In this document: in pieces, positions 2,950 through 41,589 of the stretch
Position numbering within the stretch: position 1 is the stretch's first letter
How the letters are laid out: every line of letters begins with the position of its first letter
Assembly: GCA_026770705.1 (NCBI GenBank)
Contig: JANJGN010000004.1
Location: 128,092,001-128,156,000 of the forward strand
Direction: 5' to 3'
Origin: Isurus oxyrinchus
Taxonomy: Eukaryota
Length of the DNA stretch: 64,000 bases
Made by a program: the position numbers and the translations under genes
The notes under the pieces: generated by a model
Told to the model about the DNA's origin: nothing
What the model saw: only the letters and a program-made list of their open reading frames with translations
Databases searched by the model: none

Positions 2950-4280
2950 AGGGAGTAGAATCTGAGACTCTTGCTCAGCCCATCTGGAATAAAAGGCCCA
3001 GGATTCATCACCCCTGCCACATCACTTTCTTGTCCTATTCCTCCTGAGATGAACTTCAGATCCTGGTGGCGTCCTGGTTGTGCCTTCATAAATGCGATAT
3101 TGGATGCAGCACCAAGGGTATGTATTGGAGGTCACACCGCCTCCCCGCCCCCCCATCTCCTGGGAGGAAGCATTGCTTCAACACACCAATGGTCTACTCC
3201 ATGACATCCCTGATGTCATGGCTCTCATTATATGGCTATTGTCCTTGTCTGGTCAAATAGCGGAGAGGGGTCTGGAGGGTGCATCCCATGTCTCGTTAGA
3301 GCCAGCCTCTAGTTTTTCTTGGAGACACAAAGACATTGAGAACAACAAACTGCCTTAGAATGAAGGCATGGTAGCTGCTTCCATGATAGGGGGTCTTTAC
3401 CAACATGCACTGTGCATGGTCATCCAACTATGCATTAATTGAGTTGTAGCCCTTGTGGTCCCTATACATCTCCCTGGTGACATGGGAATGCTTACAGATC
3501 ATTCAATGTCTCCATGTACCATTAGAAATGGAGGCGATGGCATAGTGGTATTGTCACTGGACTAATAATCCAGACACCCAGGGTAATACTCTGGGAACCT
3601 GGGTTTGAATCCTGCCACAGCATTTGGTGGAATTTGAATTCAATAAAAAGTCTGGAATTAAAAGTCTAATGATGACCATGGAACAATTGTTGTAAAAACC
3701 CATCTGGTTCATGAATGCCCTTTCGGGAAGGAAATCTGCTGTCCTTATCTGCTCTGGCCTACATGTGACTCTAGACCCACAGCAATGTGGTTGGTTCTTA
3801 AATGCCCTCTGAAGAAGGGCAATTAGGGATGGGTAATAAATGCTGGCCTAGCCAGTGATGCCACATCCCATGAATGAAAAAAAAATCCTGGCAAAGCCAT
3901 GTGCCCTCGTACCCTGCTCATAGAACATGGTGTAATTGCCTCTTTTTGCATATATGGTTGCTGTCACCTCCTGGATGTAGCGTAGGATGGTGTACTGGGA
4001 GATGTAAATTATGTTGTAACCTCCTACCTATCAGTCGAGTGGCAATTTTAATGCCACTATGATCTTTAAAGCCATTGATAGTGCTGTCTGTGAGGCTCCA
4101 GGCCATATTGGAGAAGATCGTTACAGACTGTTCCACTTCCTTCAACACAAGCTGGCACAGTCTGCCACCAGCTCTTTGTTGAATCTGAGCCCCCTTCAGG
4201 CATTGACTTGGTGAGTTGGAGGTGTGAGAAAACCTGTAGTGAGGAAGGCCTTCTGTGAAGCCCAATGCGCTCTTAATGTG
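2950..4280 (-). pseudogene. Degenerate Harbinger (HARBI1-like DDE) transposase, interrupted by a SINE
   Basis: Minus-strand motifs LRFNKELVAD, YISQYTILRYIQEVT, HKGYNSINA, GSSYHAFILRQ, PYNESH...TIGVLKQCF, with multiple stops and frameshifts. Convergent with the Myb-like ORF, as in the element at 18324-21889. Confidence 0.8.
3529..3885 (+). mobile_element. tRNA-derived SINE whose head and tail match the LINE at 37501-41051
   Basis: A box TGGCATAGTGG (~3538), B box GGTTTGAATCC (~3602), tail agggcaattagggatgggtaataaatgctggcc...catgaatgaaaaaaaa. Confidence 0.9.
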
Positions 4281-7696: not shown

Positions 7697-8345
7697 TATT
7701 CTTTCATGGAATGTGGGCATCACTGGCAAGGTCAACATTTATTGTCCTCCCCTATTTGTCTTTGAAATGAGTGACTTGCTAGGCCATTTCAGAGGGCATT
7801 TAAGAGTCAATCACAATTCGGTGGGTCTGGAGTCACATGTAGGAAAAACCAGGTGAGGATGACAGATACCCTGCCCTAAAAGGACTTTAGTAAACCAGAT
7901 GGGTTTTTACAACAATGGATTATAGCTTCATGGTCACCATTACTGGGACTAGCTTTCAATTCCAAATTTATTAATTGATTTCAAATTCCACCAGTTGCCA
8001 TGGTGGGATTTGAACCTATGTCCCCATATCATTAGCACTGGCCTCTGGATTACTAGTCCAATTTTATTGCTGTGGCATAATGGCTTAATAGTTATGGTAA
8101 TGAGATAGTGGTATGTATTGTGATGTAACAATGACATCAGCAGTCATGTGCTAGAGACTCCATAGAGAAGATAAAATAGCCTGTACACAAGAGAGATGTA
8201 GTCACCTAGTATCTTATTGTGTTTATGGTGTAAATAAACTAGTTTTGAAGCAACCTACCTGAGTCAGGCTTGAGTCAACTTTCCTAGTATAGATTAGGCC
8301 ATGAGACAAACCACTAACAATTACCACTATGCCACTGTCTCCCCC
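7697..8345 (-). mobile_element. tRNA-derived SINE (same family as 3529), with a solo LTR inserted in its head
   Basis: Tail at 7697-7770, body to ~8060, A-box end attaccactatgccactgtctcccc at 8320-8345. Confidence 0.85.
8067..8319 (+). mobile_element. Small solo LTR
   Basis: tg...ccactaaca ends, gtcatgtg and aataaa motifs. Splits the SINE between its A box and the rest. Confidence 0.55.
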
Positions 8346-12115: not shown

Positions 12116-12523
12116 CGTTACAACACATAATTGTTTTACTATAGAATCATTGACTCAGCTATTTAGAACACAAAGAAAGCCATTCAGCCCATTGTGCCTT
12201 TGGTTGGAAAAAGAGCCATACATCCTAATCCCACATTCTAGTTCTTGATCCGTAATTTGTAGGTTACTGCACTTCAAGTGCATATCCACATACATTTTAA
12301 ATATGAAAAAAAAGCAGCTGATTGGTGAGTAAGTCCTGGTGAGTTTTTTTTCCAATCTATTAAAGTAATCCATTGCTTAATACTGAGGTAGGAGCAAAAA
12401 AAAAGTATAGTGTCGTACTGTACATGTATAATTAGTCAAGGAACAACGTACCTAGCTAACATAAATAAGGCTCCGAGCTAGCATATTTTTAACGGAGCAA
12501 CTAGCTTAATCGAGAGAGATATC

Positions 12524-13470
12524 ATGGCAGGAGAACTCAGACCCATGATATGCTCCTCCTGCAAGATGTGGGAAATGAGGGATGCTTCCAGTGTCCCTGG
12601 TGACCATGTTTGCAGAAGGTGTGTCCAAATGCACCTTCTTGCTAACCAGATTTCAGAGCTGGAACTGCGGGTGGACTCGGTGTAGAGCATCTGCAATGCT
12701 GAGCAAGTTGTGGATAGCACATTTAGCGAGATGGTCACACCGCAGGTGAAGATTACACAGGCAGAAAAGGAATGGGTGACCATCAGGAACAATAAAAGAC
12801 TCAGGAAGGTTGTGCAAGAGTCCTCTGTGGTCATCCCCCTCTCTAACAGATATACCGCTTTGGATACTGTTGTGGGTGTTGGCCTCTCAGGGGAAAGCAG
12901 TAACAGCCAAGTTCACAGCACCGTGGATGGTTCAGCTGCTCAGAGGGATGGGAGGAAAACAAGTGGCAGGGTTGTAGTGATAGGGGATTCAATAGTTAGG
13001 GGCACAGACAGACACTTCTGTGGCCGCAAAAGTGAATCAAGGATGGTATGTTGCCTCCCTAGTGCCAGGGTCTGGGATGTCACGGAGTGGCTGCAGGACA
13101 TTCTGGGGAGAGAAGGTAAACAGCCAGTGGTCGTGGTACACATTGGCACCAACGACATAGGTAAACTAAGGGATGAGGACCTGCAATCTCAGTACAGGAA
13201 GTTAGGCGATAAATTAAAATGCAAGACCTCAAATGTAGTAATCTCAGGATTACTCCCAGTTCCACGTGCTAGCGAGAGCAGGAATAAGAGGATAGACCAA
13301 ATGAACACATGACTGGAGAGATGGTGTAGCTGGGAGGGATTCAGATTCTTGGGACCGGTTCTGGGAAAGGTGGGACCTGTACAAACTGGATGGGCTGCAT
13401 TCAGGCAAAGCTGGGACCTGTGTCCTTGCGGGGGCTTTTGCTAGTTCTGTTAGGGAGTATTTAAACTAGT
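12524..13470 (+). pseudogene. CR1 ORF1: zinc finger/leucine zipper plus SGNH (GDSL-type) esterase
   Basis: MAGELRPMICSSCKMW...C..C, VVVIGDSIVRG, VVVHIGTNDIG, DGLH. Internal stop codons. Confidence 0.9.
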
Positions 13471-13609
13471 GTGGCAGGGGGATGAGATCCCAGGAGTAGG
13501 ATCAGATAGGTCTGATTCAGATCAGAAAAATGGAGGTAGGCATTAGCTAGGGACATTATGATTGACATGGAATTACAGGAAAAGCAAAGTTTAGAAAATG
13601 TCCAGCAAG

Positions 13610-16340
13610 GGAAATTGAAGGGGTTAAACTGTTTATACTTCAATTCAAAGAGTATTGCAAATAAGGTAGATGAGTTAAGGGCACAGGTAGAAATATGGCA
13701 GCAGGATGTCTTTGCTACAATGTAGACCTGACTAAAGGAGGGACAAAACTGGCAGCTTAATATCCCTGGTTATAGAGTCTTCAGACACAATAGAGTAGGA
13801 GATAAAAAAAGGAGGGGGTGGGGTGGGGGGTACCACTAATGGTTAAAGAATCAATTCCAGTTGTGAGAAGGGATGATAAACTAAATGGGTCAACAAACGA
13901 GGCTTTATGGATTGAGCTTAGAAATAAAAAAGGGGCAGAGACACTACGAGGAGTATGCTACAGATCCCAAATAGTGAAAGGGAGATAGAAGAACAAATAT
14001 GTAGGCAAATTTCTGCTTGTAAGAACAAGAGGGCAATAATAGTAGGAGACTTCAACTATCATAATATCAACTGGGATTTAAACAACATTAGGGGCACTGA
14101 AGGATAAAATTCATGCAGTGTGTCCAGGAAAATCTTTTCAATTCAACCAATTAGTGACAAACCCAACGAGAGGAGATGCAATTCTTGACCTAGACTTGGG
14201 GAACGAAGAAGGGCAAATAGGTGAAGTGACAGTTGGCAACCACATCGGGGACAGTGATCACAATTCAGTTAGATTTAGCATTACCATGGAAAAGGACAGA
14301 GATAAGGCAGGACTAAAAGTCTTGAATTGGGGGAAGGCAAATTTTGCAGAAATGAGAAGGGATTTGGCTGAGGTGGACTGGACAGCACTGCTGGAGGATA
14401 AAACAGTGGAAAGCCAGAGGGAAGCACGAAAAAGTGAGATCCTAATTGTACAAAGTAGATATGCCCCTTACAAAAATAAGAGTGGTACTGCCAAATCTAG
14501 ACCCCTGTGGTTGTCTAGAGGAATACAGGGGAAGATCAAACAGAAAAACAAAGCATACGATAGGCACAAAGAACTAAGCACTGCAGATAGCCTAGACAAA
14601 CATAGGAAGTGCAGGGATGAAGTAAAAAACGAAATAAGGAAATCAAAGAGAGGGCATGAAAAAAAGTGGCAAGTAAAATTAAAGTTTAACCCAAAGATGT
14701 TTTACCAATACATTAATGCTAAAAGGTTAGTTAAGGAAAAAGTGGGACCTATCAGAGATGAAGATGGAAACTTGTGTGTAGATGCAGAGGCTGTGGGAAG
14801 GTTTTTCAATGAATATTTTGCCTCCGTGTTTACAAAGGAAAGGAAGGATATAGATATAGTAGTCCAGGAGGAACACTGCGAGATATTGGACAGGATAGTC
14901 AAAAAGAGGGAGGAAGTACTCGAAGGGTTGAAATCCTTGAAAGTTGATGTCACTAGGCCCAGATGGATTGTTTCTGAGGCTACTGATGGAAGTCAGATAG
15001 GAGATAGCAGATGCTCTGAGAACGATTTTCTAATCTTTACTAGATAAGGGGAGGTACCGGAGGACTGGAGAAATGCAAACATAGTTCCATTGTTTAAAAA
15101 GGGATCAAAGGAAATACAAAACAATTGTAGGCCAGTTACATCGGTGGTGAGCAAATTAGTAGAATTAATCCTGAGAGATAGGATTAACCGTCATGTGGAA
15201 AGGCATGGACTAGTCAGGGATGGTCAGCATGGATTTGTTAAAGGAAGGTCTTGCCTCACAAATTTGATTGAATTCTTTGAGGAAGTGACAAGAAGGGTTG
15301 ATGAAGGTAGTGCAGTGGATGTTGTGTACGTGGATTTTAGCAAGGCATTTGACAAGGTCCCACATGGCAGATTGGTCAGGAAAGTAAAAGCCCATGGGAT
15401 TCAGGGTAATGTGGCAAACTGGATAAAAGGCTGGCTTTGTAACAGGAAACAAAGGGTAATGGTTGATGGATGCCCTTGCGAATGGAAAGTTGTCTCACGT
15501 AATGTTCCACAGGGAATCCTTGCTGTTTGTTTTATATATTAATGATTTGGATGTGAATGTGCGGGGCACGATTGGGAAATTTGCAGATGACACAAAGATT
15601 GGCCGAGTGTAGAGGATAGCCATAATCTCCAAAATGATATAGATGGGTTGGTGAGTGGACGGTAAAGTGGCAGATGGATTTTAACGTAGAGAAGTGTGAG
15701 GTCATACATTTAGGGAGGTCAAACAGTTACAGGGATTACACAATAAATGGGAATATACTAAGAGGGATAGATGAAGTGAGAGATCTTGGCGTACAAGTAC
15801 ACAGGTCCCTGAAGGCAGCAGTTCAAGTAGACAAGATTGTAAAGAAGGCATATGGAATGCTCTCCTTCATTGGCAGAGGTATAGAATATAAGTAAGGATA
15901 TAATGTTGGAATTATATAAAACACTGGTGAGGCCAGAACTGGAGTATTGTCTGCAGTTCTGGTCATCACATTACAGGAAGAACATAATAGCTCTGGAGAG
16001 GAGGTTTACAAGAATGTTGCCAGGGTTAGAAAAGTGTAGCTAAGAGGAGAGATTGGATAGGTTGGGATTATTTTCCTTAGAACAAAGAAGGCTGAGAGGT
16101 AACTTGACTGAAGTGTACAAAATTATGAGGGAGTAGATAGAGTGGACAAGATAAAATTGTTTTCCTTGGTGGAGAATTCTAGAACCAGGGGACATAGATT
16201 CAAGATAAGTGGCAGAAGGTGTAGGGAAGACATGAGGAAGAACGCAGAGAGTAGTGGGTGTCTGGAAAATGCTACCCAAGTTGGTGGTAGAGGCAGAAAC
16301 TCTAAACTATTTTAAGAAGTACCTGGATCTGCACCTAAAG
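13610..16340 (+). pseudogene. CR1 ORF2: APE endonuclease plus reverse transcriptase, disrupted
   Basis: VGDFN, PTRGDAILDL, SDHNSV, QHGFVKGRSCLTNL, VYVDFSKAFDKVPH, KFADDTK. Many frameshifts. Confidence 0.95.
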
Positions 16341-16478
16341 TGCTGTATGCTGCAGGGCTATGGGCCGAGTGCAGGAAGGTGGGATTAGAAAGGGCACCTT
16401 GGTGTCCTTGGGCTGGCATGGACAAGATGGGCTGAATGGCCTCCTTCTGTGCTGTAACCTTTCTATGGTTTTATGGAT

Positions 16479-24720: not shown

Positions 24721-25991
24721 AAATATCTCATAGAATCATAGAATGGTTAGAGCACAGTCCGAGGCCATTTGACCAGAGATGCCCATGCCAGTTTTCCGCA
24801 ATTGTACCTCACCTAGTCCCACTCATCTGCTTTTTCCCCATAGACCCTGCAAATATTGTCTCCCTGGATAATTATCCAATATAGGAAGTTTGGTTGGAAT
24901 GTTTTCATACCAATAACCAAGGAGACACAAAATATGAGAATGGTTTAAGCACTAAAAATGTGGTATACCAACATTTGCTTATTCTAAGCATCATATATAC
25001 CACAGTTAGTTAGGAAAGTTAAGCTCCATAATGGCAACATGTCATGTTAACATTCTACAGTTTACTTAGAAAGATTTAAAATTTTGTTGGCTCATTAGAG
25101 TCATTTTTAACATTCGTGGTAACATTTCTGTAGCACATCTAAAAATAATACATGAGCAGAATTTTCCGTTTCCTCAGCCTGTCAGAAAAAGAGGCACATT
25201 CCACCTGACTAAAAGGCATGCTGTCTTTATTCAGTGTTGTATATGCACCAAAACATTGTTAAAGAATGAAAAATGATGGGAAATATGTATGGCTGAAGAG
25301 CTGAGAAATATACATGACAGAAGACTGCAAATGGGCAAAAATTTAAGCTAGAAGAAAAATCTCCAGAGCATGTCAAAAGGAATATTCTTACTAGGATATA
25401 TTCTGAGATATAGATATATACAGAGCAATATAGATTGCTATGATGCGATGATAGTGAGCAGCTGATTATATTTGCTGCTATAAATTCTCTATTTTAATTT
25501 TACTGAAGAATGAAAACATCAGCTTCATAAAAGTTCACAATTTTGTCATTGCAAAATTTTTCTGAAGCACACAGAAAAATAATAGTATTTTCAGAGGAGC
25601 CTGGTTATTATCAGAAACACCACAGTGTTGGTGACAAAATCTTAAAAAACCATCAGTGTTACATGATCAACATTAATTAAAACAATTAATAGTTCTCCTT
25701 GGCATTACCATCATGGAAACCCCGACCATCAATATCCTGGGGTTATCATTGACAGTAAATTGAATTGGATCAGCCATAAAATCCACTTGCCTGGATGAAA
25801 TTAACTCCAACAACAGTCAAGAAGCTCGGCACCATTTTGGACAAAGCAGTACGCTTGAGTGGCACCCCATCCACCACCATAAACCATTCACTCTCTCCAC
25901 CACTGGTACACAGTGGCAGCAGTGTGTACCATCTACAAAATCCATTGCAGCGACTCACCAAGGCTCCTTCACCAGTACCTTCCAAATCCAC

Positions 25992-28950: not shown

Positions 28951-29514
28951 CCTTTACTACCTAGAAGGACAAGGACAGCAGATGCATGAGAATACCACCA
29001 CCTGCAAATTCCCCTCCAAGCCATTCACCATCTTAACTTGGAAAAATATGGCCGCTCCTTCATTGTTGCTGGGACAAAATCCTTGAACTCTCTCCCTAAC
29101 AGCACTGTGAGTGTACCTATACCACATAGACTGCAGGTGGTTCAAGAAGGCAGCTCACCACCATCTTCTGAAGGTAATTAGGGATGGGCAATAAATGCTG
29201 GCCTAGTCAGTGATGTCCGCATCCAGTGAATGAGTAAATAAAAAAAAGTTTATCCACATTGCAAGTATCTGACAAAACAATAACACAATGTCACTCAAAA
29301 TAGAACAATTATTAAGGTAACAGTAAAACTAGTTAAAAATGCCTATATTTTCCATAATTGAAGCCTACAGTAGTAGGAAATCATTATTTTGAAACATGCA
29401 ATTTCTGATAACAGCTATAAAGTGCTTTAGGATGCATTGAGTTCATGAAATGTGCTGAATAAATGCAAGTCTTTTTTCTTTCATTAACAATGAGAGAGCA
29501 GTCTTATTATTTCC

Positions 29515-36900: not shown

Positions 36901-37500
36901 TTGGAACATAAGAATAGATGTAGGCCATTTGGCCCCTCATACCTGTTCATCTATGCAGTGAGATCATAGCTGTTCTGTGACCAAACTCCAGTCTGTTAAC
37001 AGGCGGAAACCTAAAGAATAGGAATAAATGGGACATTCTCAGGATTGCATGCTGTTACTAGTGGGTACCACATGGATCAGTTCTGAGGCCTTAGCTATTC
37101 ACAAGCTATGCAAATGATTTGGATGTCAGGACCAAATGTAATATTTTCAAATTTGCTGATGTCACAAAACTAGGTGGGAATGTAAGTTGTGAGGAGAATA
37201 CAAAGAGACTTGGACAGGCTACGTGAGTGGGCTAGAGCATGGCAGATGGAATATAATGTGAATAAGTGTGAATTTACCCACTTGGGTAGAAAAAACAGAA
37301 AGGCAGAGTATTTCTTAAATGGTGAGATGTTGGGAGTGTTGATGTCAAAAGGGGCCTGGGTGTCCATGTTCCTAAGTCACTAAAAGCTAGCATGCAGGTG
37401 CAATAACCAATTAGGACAGCAAATGGTATGTTGGCATTTATTGCAAGGTGGTCTGAGTACAGGGATAAAGCTGTATAGAGCCTTGGTGAGACGAGAGACT

Positions 37501-38222
37501 GAGGTAGGCGGTGGCATGGTGGTTTTGTCACTGTACTAGTATTCCAGAGACCCAGGGGAATGCTCTGGTGAAATTTGGATTCAATAAATATCTGGAATTA
37601 AAAGTCTGATGATGACTGTGAAACCATTGTCGCTTGTTGTAAAAATCTATCTGGTTCACTAATGTCCTTTAGAGAAGGAAATCTGCCATCATTACCTGGT
37701 CTGGTCCACATGCGACTCCAGATCTACAGCAATCTGGTTGACCCTTAAATGCCCTCAGAAATGGCCTGGTAAGCCACTCAGTTGTATAAAACCACTAAAA
37801 GCCCAGCCTAAAAGGAATGGAATCAGACAGACCACCCGGCACTGACCTAGGCACTGGAAATGACAATGGCAAACTCAGCCCTCTCAATCCTGTAAAGTCC
37901 TCCTTATGAACATCTGGGGGCTGGTGCCAAAACTGGAGAGCTGTTTCACAGATTAGTCAAGCAACAGCCTGACAAAGTCATCCTCATGGAATCATACCTT
38001 ACAGGTAATGTCCCAGATTCCACTATCACCAACCCTGGGTTTGACCTGACCCAGCAGAGGTGGTGGCACAGTGGTATACAGTTAGAAGGGAGTTGGCCTG
38101 GGAGTCCTCAACATTGAGTCTGGATCCCATGAATCTCATGCCATCAGGTTAAACATGGGCAAGGAAACCTCCTACTGATTACCACGTACCAACACCCCCA
38201 CCGCCACCGCTCTCTCCCCCGC

Positions 38223-38253
<31 letters not shown>

Positions 38254-41051
38254 ACCACCTCAGCTGATGAATCAGTACCATTCAATGTTGAACGCCACTT
38301 GGAGGAAGCACTGAGGGCGGCAAGGACACAGAATGCAGTCTAGGTGGGAGACTTCAATGTCCAACATCAAGAGTGGCACCACTAAAGAGCGAGCCCTAAA
38401 TGACATAGCTGCTAGACTCAGTCTGCTGTAGGTGGTGAGGGAACCTACAAGATGGATAAACATACTTGACCTCATCCTCACCAACCTGCCTGCCACAGAT
38501 GCATCTGTCCATGACAGTATCGGTAGGAGTGACCACCACACAGTCGTTGTGGCGACAAAGTCCCACCTTCACATTAAAGATACCCTCCATTGTGTTGTTC
38601 GGCACTAGCACCATGCTAAATGGGATAGATTTCGAACAGGTCTAACAACTCAAGACTGGGCATCCATGAGATGTTGTTGGCCATCAGCAGCAGCAGACTT
38701 GTACTCAACCACAATCTGTAACCTCATGGCCAGGCATATCCCCAACTCTACCATTACCACTAAGCCAGGGAATTAACCCTGGTTCAATGAAGAGTGCAGG
38801 AGGGCATGCCAGGAGCAGCAGCAGATATACCTAAGAATGAGGTGTCAACGCAGTAAAGCTACAATACAGGACTATTTGTGTGCAAGTGATAGACAGAGCT
38901 TTGCAATTCAACAACTAATGGATTAGATCTAAGCTCTGCAGTCCTGCCACATCCAGTCGTGAATGGTGTGGACAGTTAAACAACTCACTGGAAGAGGATG
39001 CTTCACAAATATCCCCATTCTCAATGGAGGAGCCCAGCACATCAGTGCAAAAGATAAGGCTGAAACACTTGTAACAATCTTCAGCAAAAATAATCAATCT
39101 TGGCTTCCTCCAGAAGTCCCGAGCATCACACATGCCAGTCTTCAGCCAATTCAGTTCACTCCAGGTGATACCAAGAAATGGATGAAGGCATTGGTACTAC
39201 AAGAGCTATGGACCCTGACAATATTCCACCAATAGCACTGAAGACTTGTGCTTCAGAACTTGCCGTGCCCCTAGTCAAGTTGTTCCAGTACAGCTACAAC
39301 ATTGGCATCACCCCAGCAATGTGGGAAATTGCCCAGGCATGTCCTGTACGCAAAAAGCAGGACAAATCCAACCTGGCCAATTACTGCCCCTTCAGCCTAC
39401 CCTCGATCATTAGTAAAGTGATGGCAGGGATCATCAAGAGTGCTATCAAGCGGCACATGCTTAGCAATAACCTGCTCACTGACGCTCAGTTTGGGTTCCT
39501 CCAGGGCCACTTAGCCCTTGACCTCACTACAGCCTTGGTTCAAACATGGACAAAAGAGCTGAAACCCAGAGATGAGGTGAGAGTGACTGCCCTTGACATC
39601 AAGGCAGCATTTGACCGAGTGTGGCATCAAGGAGCCCTGCAAAACTGGAATCAATGGGAGTCAGGGGGAAAGTTCTCAGCTGGTTGGAGTAGTACCTAGC
39701 ACAAGGGTAGGTGGTTGTGGTTGTTGGAGGTCAATCACCTCAGTTCCAAGACATCACTGCAGGAGTTCCTCAAGGTAGTGCCCTAGGCCCAACCATCTTC
39801 AGCTGCTCCATCAATGACCTTCCTTCCATCATAAAATCAGAAGTGGGGGTGTTCGCTGATGATTACACACTGTTCAGCACCATTTGCGACTCCTCAGATA
39901 CTGAAGCAGTCCACATCCAAATGCAGCAAGACCTTGACAATATCCAGGCTTGGGCTGACAAATGGCAATCAACATTTGTACCACATAAGTGCCAGGCAAT
40001 GACCATCTCCAACAAGAGAGAATCTAACCATCACCGCTTAACATTCAATGGCTGGAGGAGGTAGTGGCATAATGGTATTGTCACTGGACTGGTATTCCAG
40101 AGACCCAGGGTAATGCTCTGGGGGCCTTGGTTCTAATCCTACATGGCAGAAGGTGGAATTGGAATTCAATAAAAAATCTGGAATTAAGTCTAATGTGTTG
40201 ATTGTCATAAAAACCCATCTGGTTCACTGATGCCCTTTAGGGAAGGAAATCTGCGGTCCTTACCTGGTATGGCCTACATGTGACTCCAGACCCACAGCAA
40301 TGTGGTTGACTCATAAATGCCCTCTGAACAATTTAGGGATGGGCAATAAATGCTGCTATAGTGAATGATGCCCACATCCCATGAATTAATTTTTAAAAAT
40401 TACCATCACTGAATCCCCACTATCAACATCCTGGGGGTGATTGGAACTGGACTAGCGATATAAATACTGTGGCTACAAGAGCAGGTCAGAGGCTAGAAAT
40501 CCTGTAGCTTACCTATAACTCTCTAAAGCCTGTCCACTATCTACAAGGCTCAAGTCAGGAGTGTGATGGAAACTCTCCACTTGCCTGGGTGAGTGCAGCT
40601 CCCACAGCACTCAAGAAGCTCAGCATCATCCAGGACAAAGCAGCCCATTTGATTGGCATTCCATCCACAACCACTCACTATCTCCACCACCGACACACAG
40701 TGGCAGCAGGATGTACCATCTACAAGATGCACTGCTGGAATTCAGCACAGCACCTTCCAAACCCATGATGTAGAAGGACAAGGGCAGCAGATACATGGGA
40801 ACATCACCACCTGAAAGTTCTCCCCCAAGCCATTCACCAACCTGACTTGGAACGACATCACCGTCCTGTCATTGTTGCTGGGCCAAAATCCTGGAACTCC
40901 GTCCCTAACAGCACTGTGGGAGCACATACACCACATGGACAACAGTGGTTCAAGAAGGCAGCTCACCACCACCTTCTCAGGGGTAATTGGAGATGGATAA
41001 TAAATGCTGGCCTAACCAGCAACTCCCATATCCTATGAACGAATAAAAAAA
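37501..41051 (+). mobile_element. Apparently full-length CR1-group LINE with a tRNA-derived 5' head, a single APE-RT ORF (disrupted) and no ORF1
   Basis: Head 37501-37770 matches the SINE at 3529. APE starts KVLLMNIWGLVPKL (~37894), then VGDFNV, ILDLILTN, SDHH. RT motifs QFGF, ALDIKAAFDRVWH, AGVPQGSALGP, FADD. Tail aataaatgctggcc...gaataaaaaaaa. Confidence 0.9.
40054..40398 (+). mobile_element. tRNA-derived SINE inserted into its own partner LINE
   Basis: A box TGGCATAATGG and B-box-like GGTTCTAATCC. The LINE reads through on either side (ttcaatggc / attaccatcactgaatcc). Confidence 0.9.
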
Positions 41052-41589
41052 ACGTCTAGTTTTGGTCTCCTTACCTAAGGAAGGATATACTTATATAGCG
41101 GTAGTGCAACAGATGTTCACCAGCCTAATCCCTGGGTTGGTGGGATTGTCTTATGAGGAGATTGAGGAAACTGGGCCTGTATTCTCTAGAGTTTCAAAAA
41201 ATGAGAGGTGATCTCATTGAAACTTACAAAATTCTTACAGGGCATGATAGGGTGGATGTGGATAGGATGTTTCTGGTGATGGCTGTTGAGTCTGGAACAA
41301 AAGTGCACAGTATCAGAATAAGGGGAAGGCATTTAGGAGAGAGGTGAGAAGGAATTTCTTCACTCAGAGGTTGGTGAATCTTTGGAATTCTCTACCCCAG
41401 AGGGCTGTGGAACCTCAACGATTGAGTATGTTCAAGACAGAAATAGATTTCTGGTTACTAATGACATCAAGGGATATGGGGATTGTGAGGAGAAACTGCA
41501 CTGAGGTAGATGATTAGCCATGATCTGTTTGAATGGTGGAGAAGGCTCAACTGGTCGAATGGCCTACTCCTGTTCCTGTGCTCCTATTA

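Follow-up and report, generated by a model that had tools for sequence, protein, structure and literature searches.

A tRNA-headed Zenon retrotransposon of elasmobranchs as a candidate RNA polymerase III transcript with a predicted non-AUG start

Can RNA polymerase III (Pol III) transcribe a protein-coding retrotransposon, and if so, how would its protein be translated? The question is raised by a long interspersed nuclear element (LINE) at positions 37501-41051 of a 64,000-nucleotide stretch of Isurus oxyrinchus DNA (assembly GCA_026770705.1, contig JANJGN010000004.1, positions 128,092,001 to 128,156,000, forward strand), which we call the window. An initial annotation, made from the sequence of the window, saw in this element a LINE with a tRNA-like head, no first open reading frame (ORF1) and no T-run terminators. 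Comparing it with its relatives, we find that it is a decayed copy of an ORF1-less elasmobranch Zenon LINE of about 3.25 kb, with a head derived from tRNA-Ser(AGA). On balance we favor the view that Pol III transcribes this family and that it is translated by internal initiation at a codon other than AUG.

A tRNA-derived head on an ORF1-less Zenon family

A DNA search of the I. oxyrinchus genome gave 11,609 first-look candidates for the family, and a 22-mer that runs from the last bases of the leader into the reading frame has 3,092 exact matches in the genome. Among the first 30 of these matches in genome order, 21 reach the head and 27 run into the open reading frame (ORF); two are short deletion forms and one is a fragment. 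Copies picked by their APE (endonuclease) protein alone have the same 5' end: 11 of 29 reach the head (one across an insertion and one with an internal deletion), 17 end inside the same leader or the N-terminal extension, and one begins at the APE domain. No second 5' sequence is common to these 29 copies, whose upstream flanks share only Zenon-family pieces or other repeats, and no ORF1 was found either in the majority columns of the family alignment or in the APE-picked copies. The doubts that the initial annotation had raised about itself–that the head-LINE junction might be unique to this copy, or that the family might have an ORF1 or a different 5' end–are thus answered in its favor. SINEs (short interspersed nuclear elements) and LINE fragments are densely packed in the window, as a chance chimera at this one locus would lead one to expect, but thousands of identical junctions, the consensuses of five species and the shared 5' end of the APE-picked copies make a chimera extremely improbable, and we rejected it.

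Copies are about 9% diverged from the column majority. Duplicates (L053, L070, L085 and 12 loci retrieved twice) were left out, as were rows for L087, L204 and L214 in the wrong orientation. Inverted Zenon-family pieces adjoin copies L016, L026, L029, L077 and L101, reflecting either inversion at insertion or separate insertions. Closely similar proteins occur in Heptranchias, Mobula, Scyliorhinus, Pristiophorus and Rhincodon. Pieces of the LINE protein are also contained in four public shark gene models (P0010, P0047, P0077 and P0087, named aldo-keto reductase, cystathionine beta-synthase, GPR139 and CSL4), which are probably annotation artefacts.

The assignment to Zenon comes from Stuart et al. 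2026 (PMC13343379), who described Zenon elements from elasmobranchs, coelacanth and hagfish that lack ORF1 and end in a poly-A tail. Compared by eye, the 5' 400 nt and the length of our family agree with their CarCar_Zenon-1 consensus (3,288 characters in the supplement), which opens with the same tRNA-derived head. Within the first 400 nt, the head is found in all eight published elasmobranch Zenon consensuses, from five species (among them CarCar_Zenon-1 and those of stingray, whale shark, catshark and, in three versions, dogfish), and in none of the three from hagfish (two) and coelacanth (one). The text of PMC13343379 contains no mention of tRNA, polymerase, promoter or start codon. The family and its lack of ORF1 are therefore known; what is new relative to that text is the head, the depletion of terminators and the missing AUG. 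A literature search that did not extend to Repbase or Dfam, to the Zenodo files, to the PMC5499810 supplements or to most subscription papers found no account of a tRNA-headed or Pol III-transcribed Zenon.

The tRNA origin of the head follows from its alignment with tRNA-Ser(AGA) genes of the same genome. The alignment covers the D, anticodon and T arms and has a longer variable arm. Column counts over 47 copies in which the head is joined to the ORF yield consensus sequences for an A box and a B box; allowing one mismatch, the A box is present in 32 of these copies, the B box in 32, and both in 21. Consensus A and B boxes are also retained in the Zenon consensuses of all five published species. 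General-purpose searches see little of this origin: Rfam gives a weak tRNA match for the SINE nested in the element (E = 0.99) and none in six other loci, and ARAGORN finds no tRNA anywhere in the window. The genome has a cluster of tRNA-Ser(AGA) genes (L231-L237) on C21, near 97.4-97.6 Mb, and an older variant of the head, like the published dogfish Zenon heads, coexists with the common one (L036, L089, L209, L219 and L223). The existence of headless relatives suggests that the head was captured by a LINE.

The copy in the window is laid out as follows, all features being on the plus strand.

37502-37590, tRNA-Ser(AGA)-derived head; A box at 37512-37522; B box lost, in this copy only, with a deletion of about 33 nt near 37566/37567
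37646-37786, conserved leader domain of about 140 nt; predicted (from folds of natural copies) long irregular hairpin at 37650-37722, GCAA-loop hairpin at 37724-37737, and linker
37756-37781, final hairpin with a 7-nt anticodon-like loop; family C-T-AGC-A-A at 37766-37772, with two changes in this copy; missing from the main SINE
37794-37796, predicted initiation position; GCT in the family, in frame with the endonuclease-reverse transcriptase (APE-RT) frame, and ACT in this copy (CpG decay)
37794-40990, single APE-RT frame with an Arg-rich N-terminal extension; APE from about 37898; broken in this copy by stops, frameshifts and insertions
38195-38257, C-rich insertion specific to this copy (a gap relative to all siblings)
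40052-40399, nested SINE, element columns about 1-297 joined to the last 75 nt or so, with T5 ahead of its A tail
40991-41051, 3' untranslated region; AATAAA at 40999-41004, short A tail at 41045-41051, no target-site duplication found

This copy is dead, with stops, frameshifts, the C-rich insertion and the nested SINE. Sibling copies match the Pfam endonuclease PF14529 and reverse transcriptase RVT_1 (PF00078) in one frame. Most of 41 family 3' ends that we displayed have short A tails, and no convincing target-site duplications were found for 21 full-length copies. Most details of the initial annotation stand, including the A box near 37512, the loss of the B-box segment and the start of APE some 400 bp (we place it about 397 nt) from the 5' end. 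The head is shared, as it had said, with SINEs in the window, aligning with those at 3530 and 40055 and with one at 7765-8060; the last, which it had put at 7697, is a minus-strand copy whose head is near 8090 and whose A box is degenerate. The element interrupts the 3' portion of an ordinary CR1 (37000-37500 and 41052-41580), which makes it the younger of the two; again, no target-site duplication is present. Two further 3' fragments of the Zenon family lie at 28962-29243 and 25782-25970.

Pol III terminators and the choice of polymerase

The shortest functional Pol III terminators are TTTT and TVTTT (PMC8466645, section 3.1). The 3,294 majority columns of the family contain no run of four or more T (T4+) and six T3 runs, compared to 15 runs of A4+, 11 of C4+ and 9 of G4+, and a CR1 control of similar T content has 10 T4+ runs. 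TVTTT is also absent from the majority columns, whereas its A, C and G analogues occur 15, 12 and 9 times. Natural copies have 0.36 T4+ runs per kb (72 pieces), compared to 3.47 for CR1 (24 pieces) at a similar T content. In the window, the sense strand of 37501-41051 has exactly the two T4+ runs that had been counted by eye (T4 at 37523 and T5 at 40390, in the tail of the nested SINE), alongside 17 A4+, 10 C4+ and 7 G4+ runs, and the ordinary CR1 at 12305-16473 has 16 T4+ runs; the frequent AAAA runs and the T-run-rich CR1 of the initial annotation are therefore real. In the published consensuses, inspected by eye over their first 400 nt, T4+ runs are present in hagfish and coelacanth and absent in elasmobranchs.

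To assess the significance of this pattern, which the initial annotation had proposed to compare with a codon-based null, we used several null models. The absence of T4+ runs from the ORF differs from a third-base null (5.09 expected, P = 0.002) and from base-composition nulls (P = 0.002-0.008), but neither from permutation of the ORF's own codons (2.06 expected, P = 0.087) nor from dinucleotide shuffling of the whole element (P = 0.22). Under the same codon permutation, runs of three or more T number 4 against 12.7 expected (0 of 3,000 permutations, P < 0.0003), and T4+ or TVTTT together number 0 against 4.28 expected (P = 0.0035). CR1 behaves as expected in this test (17 observed, 16.75 expected), and all six headless metagenomic relatives fit the nulls (L121, which is frameshifted, was left out of the codon tests). 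Phenylalanine makes up 1.8% of the Zenon-family frame, compared to 2.3-6.2% in 10 relatives. The proposed depletion thus stands for T3+ and for the combined terminators, relative to codon permutation, CR1 and headless relatives, and does not reach significance for T4+ alone.

With the promoter-bearing head, these counts make a good case at the sequence level for Pol III transcription, and we consider Pol III use probable. LINEs are generally transcribed by RNA polymerase II (Pol II) (PMC5786205), and an element transcribed in that way would carry the tRNA head as a captured passenger or as part of a Pol II promoter, its scarcity of T-runs being due to strand composition, RNA stability or export. 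An AATAAA signal about 40 nt ahead of the A tail would fit such an element, as would the greater divergence between species of the tRNA part than of the leader downstream of it, and TT dinucleotides are low overall, so that the dinucleotide null accounts for the absence of T4+ runs. We nevertheless regard Pol II transcription as unlikely, because the depletion is specific to T, includes TVTTT as well, holds under codon permutation and is missing from CR1 and the six headless relatives, because the A and B boxes are retained in the consensuses of all five species, and because 12 AUGs in the leader would obstruct scanning.

Several points count against Pol III, beginning with the two strictest nulls, against which T4+ alone is not significant. 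The combined T4+/TVTTT test was picked after seeing the data, and the family is a single evolutionary sample for all of the terminator statistics. One distant headless relative (L130, 83-1783), whose 5' end is off its contig, has no T4+ run over 1.7 kb, though it has four TVTTT. AATAAA and an A tail are also compatible with Pol II. None of the copies retrieved is intact, the longest homologous open stretches being about 450 codons. The original proposal of a Pol III-transcribed LINE has therefore come through most of its own sequence-level tests, the exception being T4+ alone under the two strictest nulls.

Two further data sets were not used as support. Contigs from four RNA or guessed-RNA runs cover 30 of 30 bins of the element, which is uninformative about start, strand and polymerase; metatranscriptomes X19 and X20 have contigs along the entire element. 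Tails with T-runs could be seen as remnants of terminators: T4+ is present in 2,785 tails and T followed by A3 in 7,192, with SINE and LINE tails mixed in these counts. The two classes do not differ in divergence (0.074, n = 11, and 0.082, n = 14, respectively; P = 0.72), and T-runs in tails are described as growing after insertion (PMC8466645), so we did not count them. Many 3' ends across the genome read T4-8 then A4-7, with a roughly constant summed length of T and A.

A reading frame without an early AUG

The majority frame is free of stops over 975 codons, and its first Met is codon 291; apparent earlier in-frame ATGs are CpG decay of ACG. In about 45% of copies an in-frame TAA stands six bases (two codons) before the family's GCT. 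This TAA/TAT variant is linked to two other diagnostic sites and is therefore a real subfamily, and since that subfamily was amplified, the start must lie 3' of the TAA. The spacer 3' of the GCT, in 79 matches, is 22 nt long in 45 and 19 nt in 12, with the remainder scattered; the only large variant stays in frame, which argues that ribosomes cross the spacer. We therefore think that an internal, non-AUG start just 3' of the leader is likely, and the initial annotation's deduction that such an RNA would need cap-independent translation has gained support, both from the lack of an in-frame AUG before codon 291 and from the anticodon-loop-like hairpin described below.

A start at an AUG, on either a Pol III or a Pol II RNA, is in our estimate quite improbable, and could take two forms. 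The first uses an out-of-frame AUG about 22 nt after the GCT, followed by a -1 frameshift. This AUG is present in the main consensuses of five species, its frame reads a D-G motif that is also found in relatives, and in SquAca_Zenon-1 it is in frame with the GCT. No canonical slippery heptamer was found by eye, however, the relative L120 lacks an AUG at that position, and the in-frame spacer variant points to ribosomes crossing the spacer. The second form is reinitiation or readthrough past an AUG-GCC-UAG mini-ORF in the last hairpin, whose AUG is in frame and in a good Kozak context. We rejected readthrough of its UAG, because in the TAA subfamily two stops would have to be read.

How might a non-AUG start be specified? 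In predicted folds, the leader's terminal hairpin has a 7-nt loop, C-T-AGC-A-A, whose AGC can pair with the in-frame GCT 12 nt on. In shape the loop resembles the anticodon loop of a tRNA. Judged by eye from the published consensuses, the loop and the GCTA are invariant across five species while the flanking bases vary, and in the long hairpin an A-U pair is replaced once by G-C, with G-U as an intermediate. About 6 differences in 141 nt (counted by eye) separate the leaders of the published consensuses of white shark and stingray. Two headless relatives, L120 and L122, with about 38-40% protein identity (inferred via P0012) and ordinary T-runs, have unrelated stems of 11-12 bp that carry a 7-nt C-x-AGC-x-A loop, with an in-frame GCT ACA at 11 and 13 nt, respectively. 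This arrangement of hairpin and codon arose in 1 and 0 of 2,000 shuffles. The N-terminus of a further relative, P0171, is compatible with the same layout, by back-translation only. Searches for more relatives with DNA found none among viral contigs, one weak fragment among genome contigs, and none through longer proteins. Taken together, the evidence is suggestive of an anticodon mimic. It is possible, at somewhat less than even chances, that the loop and GCT pair as anticodon and codon in the manner of pseudoknot I (PKI) in the internal ribosome entry sites (IRESs) of dicistroviruses, with decoding from the next codon.

A number of observations speak against this account of initiation. The leader's predicted folds do not exceed those of shuffled sequences in stability (z from -0.9 to +0.9), Rfam finds no IRES match in the leader, and the list of predicted helices, made with no dedicated pseudoknot predictor, has no clear case of the further pseudoknots PKII and PKIII. 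The pairing of loop and codon is short, at 3-4 bp in the shark and 3-5 bp across the shark family and two of six relatives; the other four of the six scanned relatives show no such hairpin, and among 66 decayed shark copies only 8 have the pairing intact and in frame. The shuffle test was devised post hoc, a hairpin-codon pair of some kind appears in 7-9% of shuffles, and L120 and L122 are relatives of each other. L120 also has T-runs in its ORF and, just ahead of APE, an ATG. On viral IRESs, the GCU usually serves as the codon decoded first and not as the mimic. In SquAca_Zenon-1 (first 400 nt) the spacer is one base shorter, which places the GCT in frame with the conserved AUG that is out of frame elsewhere; this Squalus-type spacer has no matches in the I. 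oxyrinchus genome.

In the mechanism that we propose, the tRNA-Ser-derived head would direct Pol III to transcribe the element over its full 3.25 kb. The single APE-RT frame would be translated from the structured leader without a cap or an AUG, the AGC of the last hairpin mimicking an anticodon on the in-frame GCT so that decoding begins at the next codon. The start module would predate the head: a Zenon that was already cap-independent could have exchanged its promoter for a Pol III one and then been purged of T-runs. The short SINEs would be internal deletions that retain promoter and tail but lack the start hairpin. In its most complete form–one uncapped, terminator-purged RNA of 3.25 kb that is both a Pol III gene and an mRNA, on which a cellular, dicistrovirus-like anticodon-mimic IRES that predates the head and is also present in invertebrate-like Zenons begins APE-RT synthesis with neither an AUG nor initiation factors–the proposal is a speculative one that we think has perhaps one chance in three.

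Short derivatives and known systems

In the main SINE form, column ~297 is followed by the final ~75 nt of the element. This form breaks off just short of the final hairpin and has 1,424 exact matches to a 29-mer. Among 40 sampled tails, this junction was present in six and a more deleted form in one. A second short form (L223 and L226) retains coding bases on both sides of its junction, and the minus-strand SINE in the window has a third junction. The existence of several breakpoints favors repeated internal deletion from the LINE. In a tree of heads, which is star-like and unsupported, the SINE heads form no clade of their own. The full element, at 3.25 kb with an ORF, falls outside the definition of a SINE; only the derivative of about 370 nt is short and non-coding.

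If the proposal is right, the division between protein-coding LINEs made by Pol II and non-coding SINEs made by Pol III breaks down, a natural protein of about 970 residues would be made from a Pol III transcript, and a start of the type seen in dicistrovirus intergenic regions (IGRs) would be located in a cellular retrotransposon. A LINE that already bears a tRNA head also offers a simple route to the birth of a SINE, by internal deletion.

Its closest counterparts are the published elasmobranch Zenons (CarCar_Zenon-1 and the RhiTyp, ScyCan, HypSab and SquAca elements; PMC13343379), which belong to the same family of about 3.3 kb with one APE-RT ORF, no ORF1 and a poly-A tail. The lepidopteran Zenon (PMC6740152) is also a single-ORF member of the CR1 group with short derivatives that retain both ends; its internally deleted form Persaeus differs in that it is described as having neither homology to tRNA nor a Pol III promoter. 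Deu-domain SINEs (SacSINE1 and LmeSINE1) are likewise tRNA-headed shark SINEs, with LINE-derived tails. Identity with SacSINE1 was considered and then dropped, because the Deu motif (from the alignment in PMC7245038) matched, at 3 mismatches, only 1 of 227 loci, and this match is not in the leader. R2 is a single-ORF non-LTR (non-long terminal repeat) element whose RNA is a Pol I co-transcript freed by a ribozyme like that of hepatitis delta virus (HDV). The shark element has a single ORF too, and its RNA is likewise predicted not to be a normal capped Pol II mRNA, but Rfam finds no HDV-like ribozyme in its leader. Dicistrovirus IGR (type 6) IRESs (PMC10275262, PMC10516663) resemble what is predicted for the leader, in a non-AUG start, an anticodon-loop mimic in a 3' pseudoknot, a GCU at the start site and a structured region of about 150 nt. 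They differ in that no PKII, PKIII or L1.1 motif was identified in the shark leader, and in that its GCU would be the mimic's partner and not the first decoded codon; IGR IRESs in non-LTR elements have been raised as a possibility only (PMC3894237). Finally, the element shares its A/B-box head, its AATAAA and a variable T-run before a short A tail with SINEs derived from tRNA, and with T+ SINEs like B2 in particular (PMC8466645), but these are short and non-coding, whereas the shark unit is 3.25 kb long and carries an APE-RT frame.

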